From the IMG/VR virus record IMGVR_UViG_3300006141_000023: 52,116 nt of DNA. The stretch is one strand, 5' to 3'. Positions 8,835 to 45,046 of this stretch are shown piece by piece; position 1 is the stretch's first letter, and every line of letters begins with the position of its first letter. This DNA is from a virus. Below the pieces are notes generated by a model. That model was not told the origin of the DNA. It saw only the letters and a list, made by a program, of their open reading frames with translations, and searched no databases. The position numbers were made by a program, and so were the translations under genes.

Positions 8835-8868
8835 CAAAGTTACTTAAAAATGATTGTAATATAATCAC
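8835..8868 (-). promoter_or_regulatory. promoter with TAACTTTG -7 box plus 19-bp palindrome (ParB-methylase / packaging genes)
   Basis: caaagtta at 8835-8842 and ATGATT-GTAATAT-AATCAC at 8850-8868. The ATG is at 8817. Confidence 0.55.
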
Positions 8869-9269
8869 TTTTGGGCGCAATTAGAGGCTTCCTGTGGCTC
8901 TGCCGAGTATCGCATAGTCTCTCGTATCATGTTGAGCGTTGCGTTGCTGCACAGCTCGTCAGGAATGGTGCGCAGAACTCGCCAGCCCATGACGGTGGCG
9001 GTGTTGTACTTCTCCATGTCGTTGAGAAACCCTTTCGGGGACGTGTGCCGTCCGCCTGTCCACACTCCGCCCTCGACTTCGACTGCTATCTTGTGTTCCG
9101 GGATTGCGTAGTCGAACCGCCACTTGCGTGTGGGGTGGAACTTATGCTCTTTAACACACTCGACTTTCAAATCGGAGCGGCAGAGTAGTGTGAAAAAGTC
9201 CGATTTTAGCTGCTGCGGCTTCGCCTGTCGCGTTTTCTTGCGTCTTGTGGGTGTTTGGTCGTTTTTCAT
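8865..9269 (-). CDS. PD-(D/E)XK nuclease, DUF559/Vsr-like
   Basis: WRFDYAIPEHKIAVEVEGGVW...GWRVLR matches the D...EVEG...GW.vlR pattern of this fold. Confidence 0.5.
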   Translation of the reverse strand: MKNDQTPTRRKKTRQAKPQQLKSDFFTLLCRSDLKVECVKEHKFHPTRKWRFDYAIPEHKIAVEVEGGVWTGGRHTSPKGFLNDMEKYNTATVMGWRVLRTIPDELCSNATLNMIRETMRYSAEPQEASNCAQK

Positions 9270-27979: not shown

Positions 27980-30900
27980 TTAGAGCGTACTCCACGAATT
28001 GCCGCCGTTGGTTGTCTTCTGTACGCCGCTCGTGGTCACTCGCAGTCCGTAATTGCCCACGCGGACGATGAGTCCCTCTCCCGAATGGAAGCGCAGGTAG
28101 TTCGCGTTGTAAATCGCCATGAAGCCGTTCTTGGCAATAAAAACCTCCTCCTTTGCGGTCTTCGCCTGTAAGCCTTGAGACAGGACTTGGAGTGTGCCGT
28201 TCCACAAGCTGTACCCGGTAACGTACACCGTGAGGTAAATCGCGATTCTGATACGTCCGGCTGTTGGGATTGTGATTTCTCCCTGTCCTTGCGAAAGTGC
28301 GACCTGTCCGATTAAATCCCAAGAGTTGCCGTTCTTTTTGAGGACGTTTGCGTACATGGATGTCGTGATTTTGTTGTATGGGATCGCGTTCCCGTTAAAG
28401 TCCTTGAGTTGGCAGTTCCCTTGAAGGTCTCCGAAGTCTATTCGGGTGGAATTCTCCGCTATGTCATACTCCACGTAACCATAGAGGGTATTGTCTTCGG
28501 TCGGGGCATAGTCATCACGTCCTTCGTCATAAAAGGCTGCGTATTCAAATGCCACTTCGGTCGGGGTCTCTCCGATGTAGGTCGCGCTTCCTCCGTAGGC
28601 TTTCACGACGAGATCTGTGGTCTTTCCGGCTGCGTTGACCGAGGGCAGGGCGTTGGGCGTGATGCGGAGGCGTTCTATGCCGTCGTTGTCCACTCCGACT
28701 AAATCCTTGCCATCGACGAAGATCCAGCCAATCCTTGCGCCTGTGCCATCGAACACGACCTTGCCGGCTGCAAAGGACGCGATGTTCTTCAGTCCGTCGA
28801 TGAAGAAGTTCGGGACTCCGTTGGTCGTTGCCAAGCTCTCAAGACGTTGGTTTCTGAATATGAGGTTGGCGATGTTGGCGTTCTCCGCGAGGAGCAGTCC
28901 TGTTGCCACGCTTTCAAACGATGAGCCGAACTGATTCCAATAATCCGTATTTGTCGGGACTTTGTTGGAGAAGCCGCCCACGCCATTGGGAGCGTCCGTC
29001 CTTGCCACATAGTATGTGCTGCCGTAAAATACGCAGTCCACCCTGCTGGCGTTGCCGTAGTAGGTCTTTGATGAGCTGTAGTTCCCTCTGAAAACAAGAG
29101 CAGGACTTTTGCCGTCTTTGCCGTCTTTGCCGTCCTGCGGAGTCATGCGTACCGGGATTGACCATGCGCTGACGAGGGATGTTCCGCTGCCGTTCTTCAC
29201 GGCTTTCGTCATCCACAGGTAGAATCCTTTGTTGACGGTCGGCATCGCCGTTGACCACCCGGATGGGTTGAGGGAATTCCGCACAAGTGTCGGGGGAGTC
29301 GTTGTCGAACCATTGACAGCAAATCGGTACTCGGTATAGTTGCCCGGCTGTCCTGTCGAGCCGTTCTGTCCATACTTCGCCCAAAGTGCGGCAACCGCGT
29401 TATTGCTCGCACTCCCGATGAATGCTCCCCATGCGCCCTCAGTCTTCTTCCTGTAGCAAACCCATTCGTAGGGGTATGATGATGTTACCCCTGTCGGGTC
29501 ATCCGTCCAGCCGCTTGGCACGAAGCCGTCGGTCTGACTGATATCCGTGGGGGTTGACGGTGCGCTTGAGGAAGCGGTGCGCTTGTAGATGAATTCATAG
29601 CCGAGACCGTCTTGCCCTGTCCACTTCATCCACTTGTAGTCGTTCCATGAGGAGCTGTCCGTGGGGTTGTTGTCTGAGTAGATGCCTATGTATTCTCCGG
29701 GGGTTTCCCCGTTGTTGGCTGTCCAATCGTTTACCGTGAGGCTGTTGGCGAATTTGATATGAACGTATGCGTTCTTTCCAGCAGCTCCGGGATTACCTGT
29801 ATCTCCTTTGATGCGTCCTACGTTTACCCATCGTTCTGTGTCGGCGACAAAGAGGTCTCCGTCTTCAGAAGAGTCATCATTTGACATGATGTAAGCATCG
29901 CCCGGTTCTGCATACTTGGTCATCCATCCCGGTGCAAATCCAGGGCGAGGGATACCGTATTGCTTGATGATGCAATATTTCGTTTCCTCTGTGGCTTCCG
30001 TTCCGGCTTCGAGGTCTGTATCGATGAGGTATGTTCCGAAGCGCGTTGCTCCTATGCCGGACGCTGTCCACTCCGATAGTTTTCCGAAGTGTCCTGTACA
30101 ATTTCCCTTGATATGGATTGAGGAACCGTCTTCACCACTCTCCCCCTTGATGCGCGACATCTGCCATTCGCTCCATACTCCGTTGCTCTTGCGTGAGGTC
30201 GCCATCCATATTGTGTCAGTAGAGGACTCGTTGCTCCATTGGGTATTTGTGTTGGGGTGTCCTGTCGGAGCGGTCGGGTTTTCCTCTGACGAGAATTCGA
30301 CATCGAAGTCTGCGGTGTCGGTCATCTGTCGTGGGGCTGTCCATGCGCTCTGCTGCGGTGCTTTGCCGTCAGTCGTGAATATGCGTGTAGATGCCCATAG
30401 CTTCGCTTCTCCGGCAGGGATACCGTCGCTCCAGCCTGTCGGTACGGGATTGCTGAAACTGCCGCCTGTCGGTCGTGCAGGATTGCTGTTTGTCCGGCAG
30501 AACACGGTTGATTTGAATGAGGCGTTGGGACTGATTCCGTCTTTGCCCGGTTCTCCGGCGACACCTGCCGCCGAGACTTGCCATGAGAGCGTGTTGGTGG
30601 GCGGCACTCCTGTTATGGGTGTCGGCGAAATGCAACGGTATGAGGATGTCGGACTCTGCTCGTCGGGGCGGTAGACAACCTCGTCTCCGTTGAAATAGGT
30701 CGTCTGTGCATTGTATTCCCCTCGGTAGCAGCCGAGCGGAGATTCGTCGATTCCGTTTTGGCTCTGCACCATCACACCTTTGAATTTCAGTTCTCCGTCT
30801 CCGTCAATGTTGAACTGCAACTTGTCTTTCAGCTTCATGGCGGCATTGAGCATATCGAAGTAACTCTGTCCATCAGATGCGAGGAGGCGGTCTGCGGTAA

Positions 30901-33043
30901 TGCGTCCGGGGAGTATCTCCGTGAAGCCGTAGAGGGTTGCAAAGCTGCGCTCTCCGTCGTACTCCGTGTTGAGGACTCCGACAAGCAGCCAGTAATAATT
31001 GCCTTCTTCGAGCTTATGGGCTACGGTTTCAAGTCTAAACTCCGCGCTCCCTGCGACTCCGCTGAATTGCTTGACTGCGCGAATGTAAAGGTAATATTTG
31101 ACTGCTCCGTCTGTCAGTGATGCGCTCTCGAAAGATGCCACGTTCCAATAGAGGTACTCATTCGGCTCGTGGCTCGGTCGTATGCTGTCAATGCCGAGAG
31201 TGAGGTGCTGTATCGTTCCGGCAGGAGCGACGAGCTGCTTGGTTTCTTCGCTCCATTCTATATTGTGAGGAACAGCTTCTGTACTGCCCGGCTGTGCTAC
31301 AAACTGATATTGCAGTCTCTCGTCGCCTACGAGCAAGGACATCGTTTCGACCGCTATCGGGTTAATGCGATTCGTGAAATTGTCGGACAGCGCGGCTTCG
31401 ATCATCTCGATTGTTTCCTTTGCGTCTCTGAACCTACGCTTCGTAAACTGCAACGCTGCCCGGTGGTTCTCGTCTATGACTACTTCCGTGCTTTGCAGTT
31501 CCTTGAGGGTTGAGGAAACGCTGCCGGAGACGGTCTCGTTGCTCAGTGTAATCTTTGGCTTATGTGGATTGTTGATGTAGTCCTTGATGTTGGTAATGCG
31601 CACAAGCACTCCCTCTCGCTCGAACTGCTCGTTAGTAAAGCGCACGAACCCTCCGAGGCGGATTCTTCCCCCGATGTTTATCCAATCTTTTTTTGCCCAT
31701 ATACCGTCGAGTTCCCCGGTAAAGGAGAACTTCATCTGCTCGTTGTCAAAGAGGTGCTTGACCGCTGCTCTGAACATATCCCATGACGCTCCGCTCTTGT
31801 CTGCGTCATTGCGAATGTATGCATCGGGGAGCATGACGTTGAAGACAGCGTAAGTGTCGCCCGGCTTTGGAACAAACGAGCCGCCGGGCATCATCATTCC
31901 GTCGATTTCCTGCGCCACGATTTCAAAGCGTCTTCCGGTTTTGTTCTTGCCGTTGATAGTCTTCGGCTCATGGTAATATTTGACATCGAATTCGCGCCCG
32001 GCAAGTTCCCCGGATTGGAAAACAACAGTCATCTGCTCCTCTCCGATGAGGTAGTCTTCATAGTTGAGGTCTGCCGGAATGCTGCTGTCGATGAAGTCGT
32101 AGAAATTCTTGTCTTTGTCCACCTCTACCACTTGGCTGATTGTGCCGACGCGCTTCGGGTAGTCATCGCTGCGGTCGAGGCTGTCTTCTGCAAGCGTGGA
32201 TAGCTCCTTGTCGATGTTTCGGATTGACAGACCGAGGTCATCGACAATGTAATGCCGGGCTGCATCGGGATTGTATCCGTCTTCATTCTCGAAGTGTTCG
32301 CCGTCATATCCGATGGTCTGTCCGACCGGGAGCAGAAGGCAACCGCCACTCGTTGCCCGGAGAGTCTCCGATGCAGGGTATTTGCTTCTGTCGATGTTTC
32401 TGTCTCCGCCTTGAACAAAGAGGATTTCGGTCGGCAGGGAGTCTCCGCTATTGCTCCTACCGACACCCGATTTGAAGCCGTTTCCCCTGCCGTATGAAAG
32501 AGGCAGAGGTTGGCTCTTGCTGTATTCCACTTTTCGCAAGGATACCCTTTTCCCCACAATCTCGAATTCGGTTTTGAATGTGGTGGCTTGCTTCGTGAGG
32601 GCATCCCAGCAGTAGTCGTGGTCGTAGCTGATGAGTGTCTCCACATCGTCAATGCATTCGCCGACCGTCCAGCCGGAGTCTCGCCTGTTCATATTGTCCA
32701 CGAACATCTGAAGGTGTTCTTTCGGCTTTGCTGTCAGTGGAAATTTGAGGCGACCATCTACCGGGTTTCTGAATTTCCAAATCTTTGCCTTGTCCTGTTC
32801 GCTCGAAAAGGTTACGGTGTAGTCGTAGAGCCGCGTGTGCTTCATCTTTAGCTGTTCCGGGCGCAAGAGAAAATATCGCGTACCCTCGTACTCGCAATAT
32901 GAACCTACGGGTATCTCGACGTGTGTCGGGAGCGAGTAGTAAAGAGTGAGGTTGTGGTCGCCCATAATCGCCCGGTTGCGGTAGCTGTTGTCATTTACCA
33001 CAATGTCGAGAATGAGCCTGTCGGTTTTGTCGTAAATCTTCAT
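27980..33043 (-). CDS. tail-tip/tail fibre protein (Tal-like N-terminus, long fibre)
   Basis: 1687 aa and the last tail gene. It has three internal P[ST]GW[ST]...W...AW..P repeats, a short GKDGKDGK stretch and a C-terminal LRVTTSG strand motif. Confidence 0.7.
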   Translation of the reverse strand: MKIYDKTDRLILDIVVNDNSYRNRAIMGDHNLTLYYSLPTHVEIPVGSYCEYEGTRYFLLRPEQLKMKHTRLYDYTVTFSSEQDKAKIWKFRNPVDGRLKFPLTAKPKEHLQMFVDNMNRRDSGWTVGECIDDVETLISYDHDYCWDALTKQATTFKTEFEIVGKRVSLRKVEYSKSQPLPLSYGRGNGFKSGVGRSNSGDSLPTEILFVQGGDRNIDRSKYPASETLRATSGGCLLLPVGQTIGYDGEHFENEDGYNPDAARHYIVDDLGLSIRNIDKELSTLAEDSLDRSDDYPKRVGTISQVVEVDKDKNFYDFIDSSIPADLNYEDYLIGEEQMTVVFQSGELAGREFDVKYYHEPKTINGKNKTGRRFEIVAQEIDGMMMPGGSFVPKPGDTYAVFNVMLPDAYIRNDADKSGASWDMFRAAVKHLFDNEQMKFSFTGELDGIWAKKDWINIGGRIRLGGFVRFTNEQFEREGVLVRITNIKDYINNPHKPKITLSNETVSGSVSSTLKELQSTEVVIDENHRAALQFTKRRFRDAKETIEMIEAALSDNFTNRINPIAVETMSLLVGDERLQYQFVAQPGSTEAVPHNIEWSEETKQLVAPAGTIQHLTLGIDSIRPSHEPNEYLYWNVASFESASLTDGAVKYYLYIRAVKQFSGVAGSAEFRLETVAHKLEEGNYYWLLVGVLNTEYDGERSFATLYGFTEILPGRITADRLLASDGQSYFDMLNAAMKLKDKLQFNIDGDGELKFKGVMVQSQNGIDESPLGCYRGEYNAQTTYFNGDEVVYRPDEQSPTSSYRCISPTPITGVPPTNTLSWQVSAAGVAGEPGKDGISPNASFKSTVFCRTNSNPARPTGGSFSNPVPTGWSDGIPAGEAKLWASTRIFTTDGKAPQQSAWTAPRQMTDTADFDVEFSSEENPTAPTGHPNTNTQWSNESSTDTIWMATSRKSNGVWSEWQMSRIKGESGEDGSSIHIKGNCTGHFGKLSEWTASGIGATRFGTYLIDTDLEAGTEATEETKYCIIKQYGIPRPGFAPGWMTKYAEPGDAYIMSNDDSSEDGDLFVADTERWVNVGRIKGDTGNPGAAGKNAYVHIKFANSLTVNDWTANNGETPGEYIGIYSDNNPTDSSSWNDYKWMKWTGQDGLGYEFIYKRTASSSAPSTPTDISQTDGFVPSGWTDDPTGVTSSYPYEWVCYRKKTEGAWGAFIGSASNNAVAALWAKYGQNGSTGQPGNYTEYRFAVNGSTTTPPTLVRNSLNPSGWSTAMPTVNKGFYLWMTKAVKNGSGTSLVSAWSIPVRMTPQDGKDGKDGKSPALVFRGNYSSSKTYYGNASRVDCVFYGSTYYVARTDAPNGVGGFSNKVPTNTDYWNQFGSSFESVATGLLLAENANIANLIFRNQRLESLATTNGVPNFFIDGLKNIASFAAGKVVFDGTGARIGWIFVDGKDLVGVDNDGIERLRITPNALPSVNAAGKTTDLVVKAYGGSATYIGETPTEVAFEYAAFYDEGRDDYAPTEDNTLYGYVEYDIAENSTRIDFGDLQGNCQLKDFNGNAIPYNKITTSMYANVLKKNGNSWDLIGQVALSQGQGEITIPTAGRIRIAIYLTVYVTGYSLWNGTLQVLSQGLQAKTAKEEVFIAKNGFMAIYNANYLRFHSGEGLIVRVGNYGLRVTTSGVQKTTNGGNSWSTL

Positions 33044-33152
33044 ATTCTGATGCGGAGTTATTTTATTGGAATTTGCGCCCTGCTGCGTCGTAGTCGTTCA
33101 GATGTGCGGTTGTTCCACTCGACCCGAAACGATGCGACACAGGGGCGCATTT
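33044..33152 (-). promoter_or_regulatory. conserved leader element, copy c (upstream of the 1687-aa tail fibre gene)
   Basis: Minus sense: UGCGCCCCUG-UGUCGCAUCGUUUCGGGUCGAGUGGAACAACCGCAC...CAGGGCGCAAAUUCC-N-AAAAUAACUCC-N11-AUG. Confidence 0.6.
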
Positions 33153-33166
33153 GGCTTCACTGCGGA

Positions 33167-33565
33167 TTACTTGATGCCAAGCTCGACGCAGTCTGCATCG
33201 ACCTGTTCCTTGAGGGTCTTGCGACATTCGAGGAATTCCTTGTATGCCGCGATTCTCTCTTTGGCTTCGTCGCTTGTCTTCGAGCCGCCGACCATGCCGA
33301 GATTGGCTGCGTTAAACTCGTTGACGAGCTTCTGCTCGTGCGAAGCCGGACAGATTGCCGTGATGACCGCTTCCGTGATTTTGTTGGGCGATAGCGGAGC
33401 CCACACGATTACTTCATCGCACTTCCACGAGGTTCGGGTGCTGACGGGTTCGTCTGTTCCCTCGGCATGGATTTCCGAGGTCTGTTCTTCGATGTTGAAA
33501 CGGTAGATGTAACTGCCGTTCCCTACTGCTTCCAAAACGGAAGGCTTTTCGTCATAAAATGCCAT
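33167..33565 (-). CDS. hypothetical protein (132 aa) overlapping the RT stop
   Basis: Overlaps the RT gene by 14 nt, so it is possibly part of the DGR cassette. Confidence 0.5.
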   Translation of the reverse strand: MAFYDEKPSVLEAVGNGSYIYRFNIEEQTSEIHAEGTDEPVSTRTSWKCDEVIVWAPLSPNKITEAVITAICPASHEQKLVNEFNAANLGMVGGSKTSDEAKERIAAYKEFLECRKTLKEQVDADCVELGIK

Positions 33566-34622
33566 TTTGAAATTCGGGTTTAATTATGGTTTTTAATAAG
33601 TGCTTGCTGTTGCTGTGCTGCGCCCAACCGAGCCACGATGCGACTCTCTGCTTGTAGTCGGCAAGTGAAATGTCGTTGCGTTTGTTGAGCTTGGCTACGG
33701 TGCGGCAGAAGTTCTGCTTGATGCTCTTGCGTATCAGCTTCTGTTCCCGGTAGAACTTATATCCAACGAAATCGAGGGCGCGTCCGTGGCGGTCTTCCCT
33801 GTTCTTGGCGAGAGGGAAGATTTGCCAATTGCCCTTTATCTCAAGTTCAAGCTCGTTCTCAATGAAAGGCTTGATGTGTTCAAAGAACATTCGGCGAAGC
33901 CATTCCGGGCTTGTGCCGTAGAACGCGAAATCGTCAGCGTATTCATCTACGTCGATGCGCCATTCCTCATTGCATAGGTGCATGAATACTGCAAAGACAA
34001 GGTTGGCAAGGTACTGCGACAAATAATTCCCGATGGGGAGGTTTTCTCCGTCGCATATCTCGTCCCTGCGCACTGGGTGGGGAGTACCGTTCACGCTGTC
34101 GATTATCTCGTCAATCAGCCATAGAGTGTCAGGACATTTGATTTTCCACCTTGCGGCTTTCTTCAGAACCTTGTGCTTGAGCGACGGGTAGAACTTCTTG
34201 ATGTCGATTTTGAGGATGTAGAGGGGTTGTCCGTCGTACTTGCGGATGTGCCGCTCGACGCTTCGAGCGCATCCCTCTATTCCTCTGCCTTTGACGCAGG
34301 AGTATGTGTTGTGCGTAAAGGCTGCGACCCATATCGGTTCGAGAATGTTCATTATTGCGTGATGAACTATTCTGTTGGGGTAATATGGAAGACGGTAAAT
34401 CAGCCGTTCTTTTGGCTCATAGACCGTGAATACTTCGTAGGCTGAGGTTTTGTATGTCCGGGTTAGCAACGCTTCGTGCAGGGCTTCAAGATTGGCTTCT
34501 CGGTTTCGATCATGATGCCGCACTCCGTATGTGCGGTGTTTCCCCCGGCGAGCCTTTTGGTCAGCCAGCCGGAGGTTCTCCACCGAGATTATCTTTTCGT
34601 ATAAGTTTCCTATACGCTTCAT
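33552..34622 (-). CDS. DGR-type reverse transcriptase
   Basis: YADDFAFYG catalytic box and the IGNYLSQYLANL motif ([LIV]GxxxSQ, typical of DGR RTs). It lies 145 nt downstream of the TR. Confidence 0.9.
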   Translation of the reverse strand: MKRIGNLYEKIISVENLRLADQKARRGKHRTYGVRHHDRNREANLEALHEALLTRTYKTSAYEVFTVYEPKERLIYRLPYYPNRIVHHAIMNILEPIWVAAFTHNTYSCVKGRGIEGCARSVERHIRKYDGQPLYILKIDIKKFYPSLKHKVLKKAARWKIKCPDTLWLIDEIIDSVNGTPHPVRRDEICDGENLPIGNYLSQYLANLVFAVFMHLCNEEWRIDVDEYADDFAFYGTSPEWLRRMFFEHIKPFIENELELEIKGNWQIFPLAKNREDRHGRALDFVGYKFYREQKLIRKSIKQNFCRTVAKLNKRNDISLADYKQRVASWLGWAQHSNSKHLLKTIIKPEFQNGIL

Positions 34623-34766
34623 TGCTTTGCTTTCTTACTTGGGGCTTTCGGTCGTCGATACGAGGGACGTGCCTACTAACTCCTTTTAGGGTGGTCGATA
34701 TTTTTTGCCAAGAGGCACGGTCGTCTTCCTGTTATTTCGTCGGGGTTTATTCCGTCGAGATTCTTT
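34623..34766 (-). ncRNA. DGR spacer between TR and RT (part of the presumed TR-containing template RNA)
   Basis: Non-coding 144 nt between the TR 3' end and the RT start codon. Confidence 0.5.
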
Positions 34767-34882
34767 AAGCAGAGGTGAGAGCCGATGTTCGCATTCGTAT
34801 TCGAGGGGGTGTTATTCGAGTTCGCATAGGCGAGACCTGCATTCGCACCGTTATTCGCGTTACCGCTGAACAGGACACCACG
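34767..34882 (-). repeat. DGR template repeat (TR)
   Basis: 116 bp. Ungapped match to VR1 (35372-35487) and, over its 3' 74 bp, to VR2. The coding sense is rich in AAC/AAT codons. Confidence 0.9.
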
Positions 34883-34908
34883 AGGAAGACCAACCTTTAT
34901 GTTATTTG

Positions 34909-35277
34909 TTATTCAAAATAAAACCTGTTGCCGTTTGAGCGAAGCGTAACCTTACGAGGAAATGCGTCGCGCTTCTGTATCTCTTTGAGGACATAAAGGA
35001 TTTCGGCAGACCCTGTGAAAAATTTCTGCGATTCAGATTCCGGGCTGTCCTTGCTCGGTCGGATTTGCACGAGTGTCTGTCCTGCCGTTCCTTTCTGCTT
35101 GCTGAAACGGGTGGGGATGTCTTCAAGGAATTTGAAAACCCAGAACGAAGTGTTCACAATCTTCGACTGCTTGATTTCGTCTCCGATGAGGCTTCGGCTG
35201 TTCTCGTCTCTTGGGATTCTGAGGAAGGCAAGGCTTCCGTCATCTACTCCCTGCTGTACGTTGTCTTCATTGTTCAT
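34909..35277 (-). CDS. DGR accessory-position ORF (122 aa), not obviously Avd-like
   Basis: It occupies the slot between the target gene and the TR where avd normally sits. The sequence does not look like a basic four-helix bundle. Confidence 0.45.
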   Translation of the reverse strand: MNNEDNVQQGVDDGSLAFLRIPRDENSRSLIGDEIKQSKIVNTSFWVFKFLEDIPTRFSKQKGTAGQTLVQIRPSKDSPESESQKFFTGSAEILYVLKEIQKRDAFPRKVTLRSNGNRFYFE

Positions 35278-35310
35278 GTCTGTAATGTTTTGAGGTTATT
35301 GGTTTGGTTA

Positions 35311-35347
35311 AGACCCTGCTCCCCATCGGGGGACGAGGAGCGAGGGT
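35311..35347 (-). other. imperfect GC-rich hairpin 12 nt after the stop of DGR target 1
   Basis: gaccctgctcc...ggagcgagggtc forms an outer stem with one bulge. Confidence 0.5.
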
Positions 35348-35358
35348 CGGGGGTCGTG

Positions 35359-36801
35359 TTAATCGGGTAAAAAGCAAAGGCGAGAGCCGACGGACGCAGT
35401 CGCATCCGAGGGGGCGGTATGCGAGCGCGCAAAGGCGAGACCCGCACGCGCACCGCCATACGCGCTACCGCCGAACAGGACACCACGGAGCGTCTCTGCT
35501 GTGGGTATGTTCGTGTAGTGATAATCGCAGAAGAACGTGGTGCTTCCACCGCCTGTGCAAAGGGTCGGCATGATGTCACCCTCCTCGCCGAAGATTATCT
35601 CCTTGACATATCCATCGGTTCGGGCTTCATTGCCTACGTGGTGGTATCCGTCGTATCCGTTGTCCTTAAACTTGGAGGGGTCGGAGCAGACGAATACCTT
35701 GCTCAGTTCGTCTCCGCCGTTGGCTGCTGTGGGAGAGATGCGGACGTTGATGCCGTCTGTCCACTGCCAAATATGACCGAAGGGGTTCTCTACGCCACGA
35801 TAGCGAGGAACGGAGACAGAGACGGTGGTGGCGTTGTATTCCGAGGGCATATCGAATGAAACAACGCCTGTGCCGTTGCCGATGCTGTCCGTATAACCGC
35901 AGGGAATAAAGGGATAGTAGCCGTTGAAGGTGTTCCACTTTCCTTCGTCGAGTGTTGTCACACCTGCACCGAGACCGCCCTGCTTATAGCCCTCGGTGGT
36001 CGGCTCTGCGTTAAATGCCGCCTGTGTATTGAGGTTGGCATATTCGACCACGAAGAGCCAATAGAGGGTCTTCTGTACATCGTAGGTCATGCAGTTCCAT
36101 TCGGTGGAGTTAGCCTTGCGGTTTCGGGCGTAGGTTCTGAAATTCGTGCGGCTGATGGAGGTCGCCGGGACACCGAGTTGTGTTTTTGCTGTGCCGTCGA
36201 GAGTAGCGTTGTTGTTGCCGCCACGGTAGTCTGCGGTGTTATTGGCTACGGATGCCAGCTTGTTGGTCGAGCGTTGTACGGTGGCTTCGTATGCCGAAAC
36301 GTAGCACTTGGGGACTTGATGGTATCCGGGCAGCGGAAATTCTGAAAGCATAACGCGCTGTTTGTTTCCGTCCGTGATAAAGCGGCGGTAGTGCAGAGGA
36401 ATTTCTACCATGACCTGTCCGTGCGAGCCGTCGCGGTGCTGTCCTGTCCAGTTTTTGGGGTCGAGGTATTCGACCACTTCGCCCTCATCATTGAGGAGGA
36501 CACCACGCATCCTGTTATGGATTGGGAGCGATTTGTGTAGGGCTACACTGCCGATGCGTGTGCAAACCGAGGAACTTACCGTCTTGTCTCGCTCGATGCC
36601 GTATGCGCACTGTTCCTCAAGATATGGGAGGAGGGTAGCGAGTGCTGCTTTTTTGCTCTCGCCGTCGGTGTCGAGAACCTCGACGTAGAGGTCATAGGGA
36701 TTTGTCCCTTTTACGTTTGGCAAGTCGGAGATCCGCTTGCCGTTCTGAAACGCTTCGATCAGTTGTTTGAGAAGCGATTCTTCTGCTGCTGTAAATGCCA
36801 T
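35359..36801 (-). CDS. DGR target protein 1: receptor-binding/tail fibre protein with C-terminal variable region (C-type-lectin-like expected)
   Basis: 480 aa. The C-terminus ...GVLFGGSAYGGARAGLAFARSHTAPSDATASVGSRLCFLPD is encoded by VR1. Confidence 0.8.
   Translation of the reverse strand: MAFTAAEESLLKQLIEAFQNGKRISDLPNVKGTNPYDLYVEVLDTDGESKKAALATLLPYLEEQCAYGIERDKTVSSSVCTRIGSVALHKSLPIHNRMRGVLLNDEGEVVEYLDPKNWTGQHRDGSHGQVMVEIPLHYRRFITDGNKQRVMLSEFPLPGYHQVPKCYVSAYEATVQRSTNKLASVANNTADYRGGNNNATLDGTAKTQLGVPATSISRTNFRTYARNRKANSTEWNCMTYDVQKTLYWLFVVEYANLNTQAAFNAEPTTEGYKQGGLGAGVTTLDEGKWNTFNGYYPFIPCGYTDSIGNGTGVVSFDMPSEYNATTVSVSVPRYRGVENPFGHIWQWTDGINVRISPTAANGGDELSKVFVCSDPSKFKDNGYDGYHHVGNEARTDGYVKEIIFGEEGDIMPTLCTGGGSTTFFCDYHYTNIPTAETLRGVLFGGSAYGGARAGLAFARSHTAPSDATASVGSRLCFLPD
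35372..35487 (-). repeat. DGR variable repeat VR1
   Basis: There are 22 mismatches to TR over 116 bp. Twenty-one fall at TR plus-strand T (coding-strand A). The one exception is at TR 34772, in the 3' invariant block. Confidence 0.9.
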
Positions 36802-36827
36802 GTTGAAATTGTTGAATTGTTAAAAAA

Positions 36828-37628
36828 TCAGTTCAGCCTTATTGCTCCGCTTGAAATCAGCCGGAGCTTCTTCCGGGTATTGACCATGCGAAGTGTCGGG
36901 GCTTCTACCCTTATGATTATTGTTTTTGCGAGGTCGGTGTTGCAAGTCGGTATAATCTGCACCTCGCTTGCTCCGATTCCAACCACCTTAATTCTTCCTT
37001 TTTGGTCGATTCTGACGGCTTCGTTATCGGAAATGAATATGATGTTCGGCATCGTTCCATTGGGCGTGAGAGTGGCTTCTATGCGGTTCTCTGCGGTGTT
37101 TCCGTAGGTTATCCGGCTTATGGACTCCACTTTAAGTCCTGTCGGAATAAGTCGGGCAAGTGCGGCGATTGTCTGTTCCGTGGCTAACTGCGCAGCGATA
37201 GTCGCTTCGTGTGCCTCTTCTGTCGCTTCTATTGCGGCGGTAGTCGCAGCGTCTGCATTGTTCTTGGCAGTGGTCGCTTGTCCGGCTGCGTCATTGGCGG
37301 CAGACGTTGCGGCATTTGCTTTCCCGGTAGCTGTGTTCGCATCGTAGGCTGCTTTGTTGGCTGCAGAGGTCGCTGTCCGGGCATTAGAAGCGGCGGTGGT
37401 TGCGCCCGATGTCGCTGTCTGCGCAGCGGTGGTAGCGGTTCGAGCCGCAGTGGTTGCCGCCTGTGCTTCTCGTGTCGCGGTTTCAGCGTTTTCTACTGCT
37501 GTGTTGGTCTTCTCCTCGACAAACTCAAGCGAGACCTTGACCGAGCGATTGTCTTTGTCTGTGCCGATTGTAAACAACCCTTTGAGGGACGAGTAAAGTG
37601 GTAGTTCTGTAATCTTTATTTTTTTCAT
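36828..37628 (-). CDS. Ig-like (BIG2-type) domain fibre/decoration protein with an Ala/Thr-rich helical region
   Basis: IFISDNEAVRIDQKGRIKVVGIGASEVQIIP is Big_2-like. It ends in RMVNTRKKLRLISSGAIRLN. The start is set at ATG 37628 (MKKIKITELP). Confidence 0.6.
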   Translation of the reverse strand: MKKIKITELPLYSSLKGLFTIGTDKDNRSVKVSLEFVEEKTNTAVENAETATREAQAATTAARTATTAAQTATSGATTAASNARTATSAANKAAYDANTATGKANAATSAANDAAGQATTAKNNADAATTAAIEATEEAHEATIAAQLATEQTIAALARLIPTGLKVESISRITYGNTAENRIEATLTPNGTMPNIIFISDNEAVRIDQKGRIKVVGIGASEVQIIPTCNTDLAKTIIIRVEAPTLRMVNTRKKLRLISSGAIRLN

Positions 37629-44971: not shown

Positions 44972-45046
44972 TGGTTGCGAGAGTGGGATTCGAACCCACG
45001 ACCTCTGTGCCGGGAACACAGCGAGCTGCCACTGCTCTATCTCGCT
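44972..45046 (-). tRNA. tRNA-Gly (anticodon CCC)
   Basis: Hand-folded cloverleaf: acceptor (A)GCGAGA/TCTCGC(A), D arm GAGC-AGTGGCA-GCTC, anticodon arm CTGTG-TTCCCGG-CACAG, variable loop AGGTC, T arm GTGGG-TTCGAAT-CCCAC, then A-CCA. Positions 1:72 form an A-A mismatch. Confidence 0.75.

Follow-up and report, generated by a model that had tools for sequence, protein, structure and literature searches.

How can a diversity-generating retroelement (DGR) operate without the accessory protein Avd? The reverse transcriptase (RT) of phage BPP-1 depends on Avd for its activity. An entire DGR lineage is nevertheless Avd-less, and how that lineage works has been an open matter since 2017. This question is raised by a locus in a 52,116-nt stretch of viral DNA, IMG/VR record IMGVR_UViG_3300006141_000023, the whole of which is referred to here as the window. 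A first-pass annotation had described the locus as a complete DGR, comprising a target gene with its variable repeat (VR), an accessory open reading frame (ORF), a template repeat (TR), a spacer and an RT, inserted between Dit-like and Tal-like tail genes. The analysis below indicates that positions 33167–36801 of the minus strand very probably constitute a complete, currently active DGR of a temperate siphovirus-like phage of gut Bacteroidales. The kind of element is already known—an Avd-less DGR of a gut Bacteroidales phage with a tail-fiber-type target—and its direction against a tail protein is expected biology.

The cassette and its repeat pair

All parts of the cassette lie on the minus strand. 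The target gene (480 aa, 35359–36801) is followed by a 122-aa ORF in the accessory position, here termed accX (34909–35277), the TR (34767–34882), a 144-nt spacer and the RT gene (356 aa, 33552–34622). The three genes are present at the coordinates given for them in the first-pass annotation, and the spacer has the length stated there. The bounds proposed at that stage were 33552–36801; the parts within them stand, but the lower limit moves to 33167, because a 132-aa acidic ORF (orf132, 33167–33565), which overlaps the RT stop by 14 nt, belongs to the cassette. The VR (35372–35487) occupies the C-terminus of the target, with a hypervariable core at 35391–35466. It had been labeled VR1, and the repeat itself is sound; since the window holds one VR only, it is simply the VR.

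TR and VR form a 116-nt repeat with 81% identity according to the repeat finder. Aligned without gaps on the coding strand, they differ at 22 positions, 21 of them at adenines of the TR (which has 27) and one a C-to-T change at TR position 34772, a count that reproduces the earlier hand alignment exactly. The hypergeometric probability that at least 21 of 22 mismatches would fall on adenine is 9.5e-17. Homology between the repeats ends abruptly on both sides, and no further copy was found in the window beyond TR and VR; a weak third copy of the repeat's 5' end at 36493–36507 (2 mismatches in 15 nt), which lies inside the target ORF and shows no extension, was dismissed as chance.

Randomization begins at the adenine of repeat position 22 and ends with that of position 97. 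Beyond it lies a 19-nt 3' block, TCGGCTCTCGCCTTTGCTT in the VR (35372–35390) and TCGGCTCTCACCTCTGCTT in the TR (34767–34785), which is never randomized and carries two fixed differences, A107G and C111T. The same two positions also distinguish TR from VR in six other TR groups of related phages. The single non-adenine mismatch had been assigned to an invariant block in which the initiation of mutagenic homing sequence (IMH) differs from its TR counterpart (IMH*), and position 111 is indeed fixed as C in the TR and T in the VR in every copy. Judged by sequence alone, the block is what an IMH/IMH* pair should look like. At the opposite end, A16 is G in every VR except one, a pattern consistent with a 5' boundary that is not sharply defined. 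A GC-rich hairpin (35312–35348, minus strand), 24 nt downstream of the VR, folds as DNA with −14.2 kcal/mol (z = −2.1) and is a tentative candidate for a cruciform or terminator; similar hairpins occur downstream of the VR in many relatives, though not in all.

Variation among copies of the phage

Exact-protein look-ups in an assembly collection found the RT indexed in 648 blocks and the 122-aa protein in 2097. Three such look-ups together with an exact DNA scan for the TR yielded 30 loci (L161–L190); an exact TR 47-mer matched 9 contigs, and an N-masked TR/VR pattern found no match in IMG/VR or the metagenome collection. The fetched loci of this phage number 21 (L161–L173 and L183–L190), and the VR comparison comprised 21 copies with a canonical TR, namely 20 loci and the window.

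The TR is identical to that of the window in 19 of the 21 loci; the TR of L173 is off by 1 nt, and the TR slot of L162 is aberrant. The VR, by comparison, occurs as 15 distinct sequences in 21 copies, which come from different samples and differ pairwise at 9–22 positions. Variation is found at 26 columns: 23 are TR adenines, and the other three are singletons. This is the outcome anticipated by the first-pass annotation, which had proposed examining whether VR polymorphism falls at TR-adenine columns. Summed over the distinct VRs, and with the fixed C111T set aside, 276 differences from the TR lie at adenines and 3 elsewhere, which per site amounts to 0.68 at adenines and 0.002 at other bases, or about 300-fold. 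Outside the VR, the flanks (approximately 8 kb) show 0–5 single-nucleotide polymorphisms per feature relative to the window, the Tal-like gene of one lineage excepted, and L163, L168 and L172 show 0–1 in total. At the protein level, 13 residues vary (446, 448, 449, 452, 457, 459, 461, 462, 466, 467, 468, 470 and 471). The TR codons underlying all of them contain adenine (ten AAY plus TAT, ACG and ATC), and the 13 residues allow approximately 3.7e13 protein variants. Clusters formed at 90% identity likewise hold 440 distinct sequences for the target, compared with 39 for the RT, 3 for the 122-aa protein and 24–47 for neighboring genes. Additionally, two assemblies (L174 and L177, WFLX01... contigs) carry N exactly at the TR-adenine columns of the VR, which suggests heterogeneity of the VR within a sample.

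Together, these data are direct evidence of recent, repeated, unidirectional and adenine-specific rewriting of the VR. With an invariant TR and adenine-only changes in the VR across copies, the mutagenic retrohoming aimed at a tail protein that had been predicted from a single genome is borne out. The element could in principle be a fossil whose VR diversity consists of old alleles shuffled by recombination: activity is known here from sequences alone, and some VRs are common to several samples (one is shared by L164, L169, L183 and L184, another by L171 and L189). Such a history is very improbable, as genomes that are identical over about 8 kb carry VRs 9–22 positions apart, all VR differences except the three singletons lie at TR-adenine columns, ambiguous bases mark exactly these columns in two assemblies, and the RT, TR, RNA elements and accX are all intact and conserved.

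The aberrant locus L162 (ERZ4239743 NODE_289) carries a VR-like sequence in its TR slot (3741–3856) with 15 adenine and 6 non-adenine changes. Its IMH* end is kept and the surrounding 9 kb are identical to the window; a GGCTTC variant also occurs in relatives. The slot could reflect a real overwrite, gene conversion from a related phage, or an assembly artifact or chimera.

The reverse transcriptase

The RT contains an RVT_1 domain and belongs to PHROG 1423 (E 6e-108), and the YADDFAFYG and IGNYLSQ motifs cited in the first-pass annotation were confirmed in the 356-aa ORF. Its best solved relative is PDB entry 8ub7, matched end to end with E 4.6e-36; group II intron RTs reach 1e-10 and retron-type RTs 2e-9, which gives 8ub7 a lead of 26 orders of magnitude. 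The depositors name this entry only 'Reverse transcriptase'; we take it to be the BPP-1 DGR RT (bRT). The PIGNYLSQ segment of the window RT, which corresponds to motif 4 of DGR RTs (I/LGxxxSQ), aligns with PIGSLTSQ of this presumed bRT, and among the records matching the window RT are five from Bordetella phages. The text of a related cryo-EM preprint (10.1101/2023.10.23.563531) does not contain the code 8ub7.

An RT derived from a group II intron, a retron or a defense system, with the repeat being coincidental, might be considered on the strength of names: with 79.5 bits, the top NCBIfam match bears the name of a group II RT/maturase family, and relatives are entered as 'retron-type' in some database records. 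However, 79.5 bits lies far under that model's cut-off of 300, the retron model (34.5 against 235) and the defense-associated RT (DRT) models are also below their cut-offs, as is every NCBIfam RT family by a wide margin, and 8ub7 is a far better match. An Rfam scan of positions 33000–37000 found no group II intron or retron RNA family, its sole match being the RNA described below. Moreover, all-against-self BLAST identified an adenine-biased TR/VR pair upstream of the RT in 169 of 190 loci. A non-DGR origin thus has next to no probability, and the assignment of the RT to DGRs holds on similarity scores. At several loci, the RT is called as a 266-aa protein; the DNA is identical, and the apparent truncation was traced to the gene caller's choice of start codon.

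RT-based searches retrieved 160 related loci from IMG/VR and GTDB genomes, mostly from gut Bacteroidales and their phages, with some from environmental Bacteroidota. Among annotated RTs, those from the DGRs of crAss-like phages come closest (39–46% identity), including that of LMMB, while the closest RT in GTDB genomes belongs to a Muribaculaceae metagenome-assembled genome (78% identity). Across the clade, the called TR end lies approximately 100–165 nt upstream of the RT start, most often 136–150 nt.

RNA elements around the TR

The sequence between TR and RT encodes a structured RNA. At 34623–34722 (minus strand), cmscan identified RT-17 RNA (Rfam RF03020) with 40.4 bits, equal to the gathering score of 40.4, over model positions 1–95 of 95. 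Of 16 relatives sampled, 11 likewise reach the gathering score with an RT-17 match immediately before the RT (41.7–53 bits). In an alignment of 52 TR–RT spacers, two helices are supported by compensatory changes: 98.8% of cells are paired, compared with 23–54% in slid registers, 57 cells are compensatory, and none of 500 shuffles reaches the observed score. The one RT motif that Weinberg et al. 2017 (PMC5737381) linked to a DGR, that of BPP-1, was RT-10; on the other RT motifs they speculated.

A further helix joins the spacer to the other side of the TR. The 13 nt directly 5' of the TR, GGTTGGTCTTCCT (34883–34895), pair with AGGAAGACGACC (34719–34730) at the 5' edge of RT-17 to form 12 bp. 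Among 42 distinct sequences, 97% of cells are paired in this helix, against 35–57% in slid registers; 8 of the 12 pairs have changed on both sides, and again 0 of 500 shuffles match the score. The TR is thereby looped out, with one strand of the helix on either side of it. In BPP-1, an 11-bp duplex between avd and the spacer (Sp), the avd:Sp 'cPRT Stop', brackets the TR and ends cDNA synthesis (10.1101/2023.10.23.563531); topologically, the 12-bp helix is its equivalent.

Two other types of pairing were examined and set aside. For a template:primer duplex linking the 3' end of the TR to the spacer, no consistent register or energy was obtained across relatives, and a naive covariation screen for further long-range spacer pairs gave G-U noise only.

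A candidate protein partner of the RT

The ORF between VR and TR had been annotated as the accessory ORF. Its position is that of an accessory gene, but it is no Avd homolog. The 122-aa protein, with a basic pI of 8.96, belongs to PHROG 19665, of unknown function. Sequence searches of Pfam, NCBIfam and the PDB gave no match, whether with the protein itself or with a profile of its family. Its AlphaFold2 model (pLDDT 82) comprises five strands and one long helix; because the model is mainly beta, the protein is not an Avd-type helical bundle, the four-helix fold of the Pfam 23S_rRNA_IVP type. Pfam likewise gave no hit for the remaining non-RT ORFs scanned, whether inside the cassette or immediately upstream of it. 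Fold matches of accX in the PDB are weak and mostly to OB-fold proteins.

Two architectures occur among the relatives: a VR–TR gap of approximately 400–560 nt that holds a homolog of the 122-aa protein, and a gap of 40–165 nt that does not. With a family profile, diverged accX homologs were found in the short-gap loci as well, located downstream of the RT and orf132, and weaker homologs directly follow the RT in environmental relatives, whose targets are unrelated. Homology across these positions is confirmed by profile–profile comparison (probability 98.3%, E 1.8e-14, 98 columns). Altogether, accX is present in 138 of the 143 loci with a called TR/VR pair—between VR and TR in 78, after the RT in 60, and in both places in none. 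It is missing from the other five, two of which are truncated. The family forms 110 clusters among 1.84 billion representative proteins, all of them small standalone proteins. It goes unmentioned in the main texts of Wu et al. 2018 (PMC5758913) and the LMMB paper (PMC7290462), in so far as these were accessible. Fold matches of accX in BFVD include proteins that carry an RT annotation (E 8e-7, TMq 0.64), a hint from modeled structures at possible accX–RT fusions.

With moderate confidence, we propose that accX is the missing protein cofactor of this Avd-less DGR lineage, unrelated to Avd, basic, beta-rich and possibly OB-like. In that capacity, it would probably replace Avd in positioning the RT-17/TR RNA on the RT. 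That accX is the lineage's own RT partner is inferred from its co-occurrence and position only. Alternatively, the 122-aa ORF could be a passenger, either a moron or a structural gene, in an RT clade that needs no protein cofactor. Wu et al. describe Lineage 3 as devoid of avd and suggest Avd-independent homing (PMC5758913); in keeping with this, the crAss-like DGRs, whose RTs are 39–46% identical to that of the window, have no detectable accX homolog, five related cassettes lack the gene, and accX has no known domain. Yet a passenger would not be expected to track the RT through changes of position and of host element, as accX does in 138 of 143 cassettes from gut phages and environmental Bacteroidota with unrelated targets, always adjoining the RT/TR in one of two mutually exclusive positions. 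It also takes the place that avd holds in BPP-1, is basic like Avd, and has BFVD fold matches annotated as RTs, which may be fusions. We therefore consider a passenger role unlikely and prefer accX as an RT cofactor.

Two other origins proposed for accX were rejected. It is not a duplicated RT fragment (BLASTP E 2.7; hhalign probability 0.2% against the RT family), and it is not fused to the RT in the crAss-like phage cr7_1, where an RT extension of approximately 95 aa (with TAG read as Gln) shows no profile similarity to accX.

A second gene coupled to the RT

The 132-aa ORF orf132 belongs to PHROG 11557, of unknown function, and encodes an acidic protein (pI 4.72). In 171 loci, a homolog begins where the RT gene stops; one of these is the locus of cr7_1, a phage of unrelated virion type, in which the gene (L191, 4657–5049) is interrupted by in-frame TAG codons indicative of recoding. 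It is missing from the environmental clade, in which accX directly follows the RT. On this distribution, orf132 travels with the RT and may be a second DGR accessory gene; possibly, it shares an Avd-like role with accX. We also considered that orf132 may be the acidic 'CH1' of Wu et al., an identity not upheld on size: the pI agrees (4.72 against 4.7), but the lengths are 132 and 160–169 aa. One 167-aa member of the orf132 cluster is a C-terminal frameshift variant.

Adenines that consistently become guanine

Not every adenine mismatch is a random outcome. The adenine bias reported in the first-pass annotation stands, but four of its 21 adenine mismatches, at repeat positions 16, 45, 73 and 107 (TR 34867, 34838, 34810 and 34776; VR 35472, 35443, 35415 and 35381), are A-to-G changes fixed in essentially every copy. 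At each of the four, a CpA of the TR corresponds to a CpG of the VR. Position 107 lies within the IMH, position 16 is at the 5' edge, and at position 73 (Thr to Ala) selection on the protein could be the cause. At position 45, the change (GCA to GCG) is synonymous and flanked on both sides by randomized sites, and the same locked G recurs in five further TR groups that diversify independently. A set of 167 unique TR/VR pairs, which are related so that counts are not independent, shows a change to G at 98% of the 171 adenines in the context C-A-G and at 76% of those in C-A-C, with the remaining contexts mixed. The context biases in print for bRT (PMC12875486) do not predict approximately 100% A-to-G change at C-A-G. 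The lock at C-A-G/C could represent a deterministic step outside the current DGR model, such as context-locked misincorporation, RNA editing or a CpG repair bias; we rank this reading as weaker than the proposed cofactor role of accX.

The target protein

The target belongs to PHROG 5302, annotated 'tail protein' (E 1e-133), and is 28–48% identical to tail or 'tail-collar fiber' proteins of crAss-like phages, several of which are themselves DGR targets (PMC7290462). It has no Pfam match. The AlphaFold2 model has a pLDDT of 67 overall and approximately 30 in the VR region, as expected of hypervariable columns. Its top fold match in the PDB is the DGR variable protein TaqVP (5vf4; probability 0.82), with a weak TM score of 0.32–0.39; because of this weakness, a C-type-lectin fold is plausible at most.

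Proposed mechanism and its limits

By analogy with BPP-1, we propose that the RT would bind an RNA that spans the TR and the spacer and begins shortly before the TR, and that cDNA synthesis would be primed in cis from the spacer. The TR would then be copied with misincorporation opposite its adenines, synthesis would stop at the bracketing helix, and the cDNA would replace the VR upstream of the IMH, randomizing 13 residues of the tail protein. The role of Avd as RT cofactor and RNA positioner would be taken by accX, as its co-occurrence with the RT suggests, possibly together with orf132, which would be translationally coupled to the RT.

Several points weigh against this account. Priming, stop site and integration are matters of analogy only, and a template:primer duplex like that of BPP-1 was not found in a consistent register. 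The PDB fold matches of accX are weak and OB-like only, and no accX is detectable in the crAss-like DGRs with related RTs. The lectin fold of the target is weakly supported, given TM scores of 0.32–0.39 and a VR pLDDT near 30. Finally, simple adenine mutagenesis does not predict four unrandomized TR adenines, one of them at a synonymous site.

Significance of the locus

The locus provides an unusually clean natural demonstration of DGR activity, because an abundant phage present in hundreds of assemblies combines one TR with hundreds of target variants. For the Avd-less lineage, the locus and its relatives supply a putative protein partner of the RT, another ORF coupled to the RT, a spacer RNA assigned to RT-17 and a helix that brackets the TR and is backed by covariation. 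They also define a minimal construct, in which the stretch that begins approximately 15 nt before the TR and ends at the RT start is combined with the RT, the 122-aa protein and orf132, and which is possibly a compact alternative diversifier.

The host phage and neighboring genes

The window encodes an integrase, a portal protein, a major head protein, a 1688-aa tape measure protein, a primase/helicase and a RecE-like exonuclease. Independent assemblies of this phage measure approximately 50–52 kb and also 80–256 kb, which indicates a temperate phage occurring both free and integrated. The RT, the 122-aa protein and neighboring ORFs carry the NCBI label 'uncultured Duncaniella sp.', and INPHARED contains no similar or near-identical phage at the DNA level.

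Five related loci from human gut metagenomes (L175, L176, L178, L181 and L182) belong to a different phage with a short VR–TR gap and other flanks, in which 111–112 of the 116 TR nucleotides are nevertheless the same. This near-identity suggests that the TR/VR module has been exchanged, or strongly conserved, between mouse-type and human gut phages.

The cassette does lie between the genes named Dit-like and Tal-like in the first-pass annotation, although these are not its only neighbors: a 266-aa fiber-like ORF (36828–37628, minus strand) separates the Dit-like gene from the DGR target, and orf132 stands on the Tal-like side. The two labels themselves rest on gene order, PHROG giving 'tail protein' or unknown function. 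The 266-aa ORF has an Ala/Thr-rich repetitive middle that matches tail-fiber PHROGs; in a mechanical ORF list it is 362 aa long and reaches into the Dit-like gene. The Tal-like gene (27980–33043, minus strand; 1687 aa, with called lengths of 1304–1690 aa) shows 52 differences over 2135 nt in L164, L166, L169 and L171, whereas the rest of the locus shows 0–5. It looks like a recombination mosaic in a tail-tip gene adjoining the DGR.

Three further features were observed elsewhere in the window. A tRNA-Gly (CCC) gene (44972–45046, minus strand) is located upstream of the tape-measure gene, among tail-region ORFs. A 921-aa protein (724–3489, minus strand) matches head-morphogenesis or minor-head-protein families as well as ADP-ribosyltransferases, with a Bxa-like family at its N-terminus and an ADP-ribosyltransferase exoenzyme toxin family at residues 779–906; on these matches, it may carry a virion-delivered toxin domain. 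A 486-aa protein (7420–8880, minus strand) appears to be a fusion of ParB-like nuclease/partition and DNA methyltransferase families.

Comparison with known DGRs

The cassette shares with BPP-1 the order of target with VR, small basic ORF, TR, spacer of approximately 140 nt and RT (mtd-VR, avd, TR, Sp and brt in BPP-1). Both show adenine-specific variation, a VR at the C-terminus of a tail protein of receptor-binding type, a distinction between IMH and IMH*, a structured spacer RNA, and a helix joining the segment upstream of the TR to the spacer. In contrast to BPP-1, the small ORF here encodes a beta-rich protein that resembles the four-helix-bundle Avd neither in sequence nor in fold; the spacer is Rfam RT-17 rather than RT-10; orf132 is present as an additional RT-coupled gene; the target shows no relationship to Mtd beyond the presumed lectin fold; and no template:primer duplex was identified.

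Among phages of Bacteroides, Hankyphage reportedly carries another DGR. The Bacteroides pilus DGRs (10.1101/2024.11.15.621889) and the Bacuni phages (PMC8143477) resemble the present element in their gut Bacteroidales hosts, C-terminal VRs and active adenine mutagenesis, and differ in their reported Avd-like proteins and their other RT lineages. Compared with RT-17 as described by Weinberg et al., the RNA here is placed between a verified TR and its RT and is extended 5' by the TR-bracketing helix. Neither small ORF fits CH1 in size, as this is described by Wu et al. (160–169 aa, pI 4.7; PMC5758913), and orf132 fits it in charge only.

Among the closest known systems are those of Lineage 3, which Wu et al. 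characterize by the lack of Avd, a CLec3 VR and the order target–TR–RT, and of the crAss-like phages. The DGR RT of crAssphage LMMB was placed in Lineage 3 by its authors (PMC7290462), and, judged by its best annotated relatives rather than by a tree, the present DGR may provisionally be assigned to the same lineage of Wu et al. It differs in residing in a temperate phage of approximately 50 kb with a tape measure gene, not a crassvirus, and in having a 122-aa gene between VR and TR. It shares with these systems RTs that are 39–46% identical, a homologous tail-collar fiber target, the type of VR motif, the lack of avd, a TR directly upstream of the RT and, in cr7_1, an orf132 homolog after the RT.

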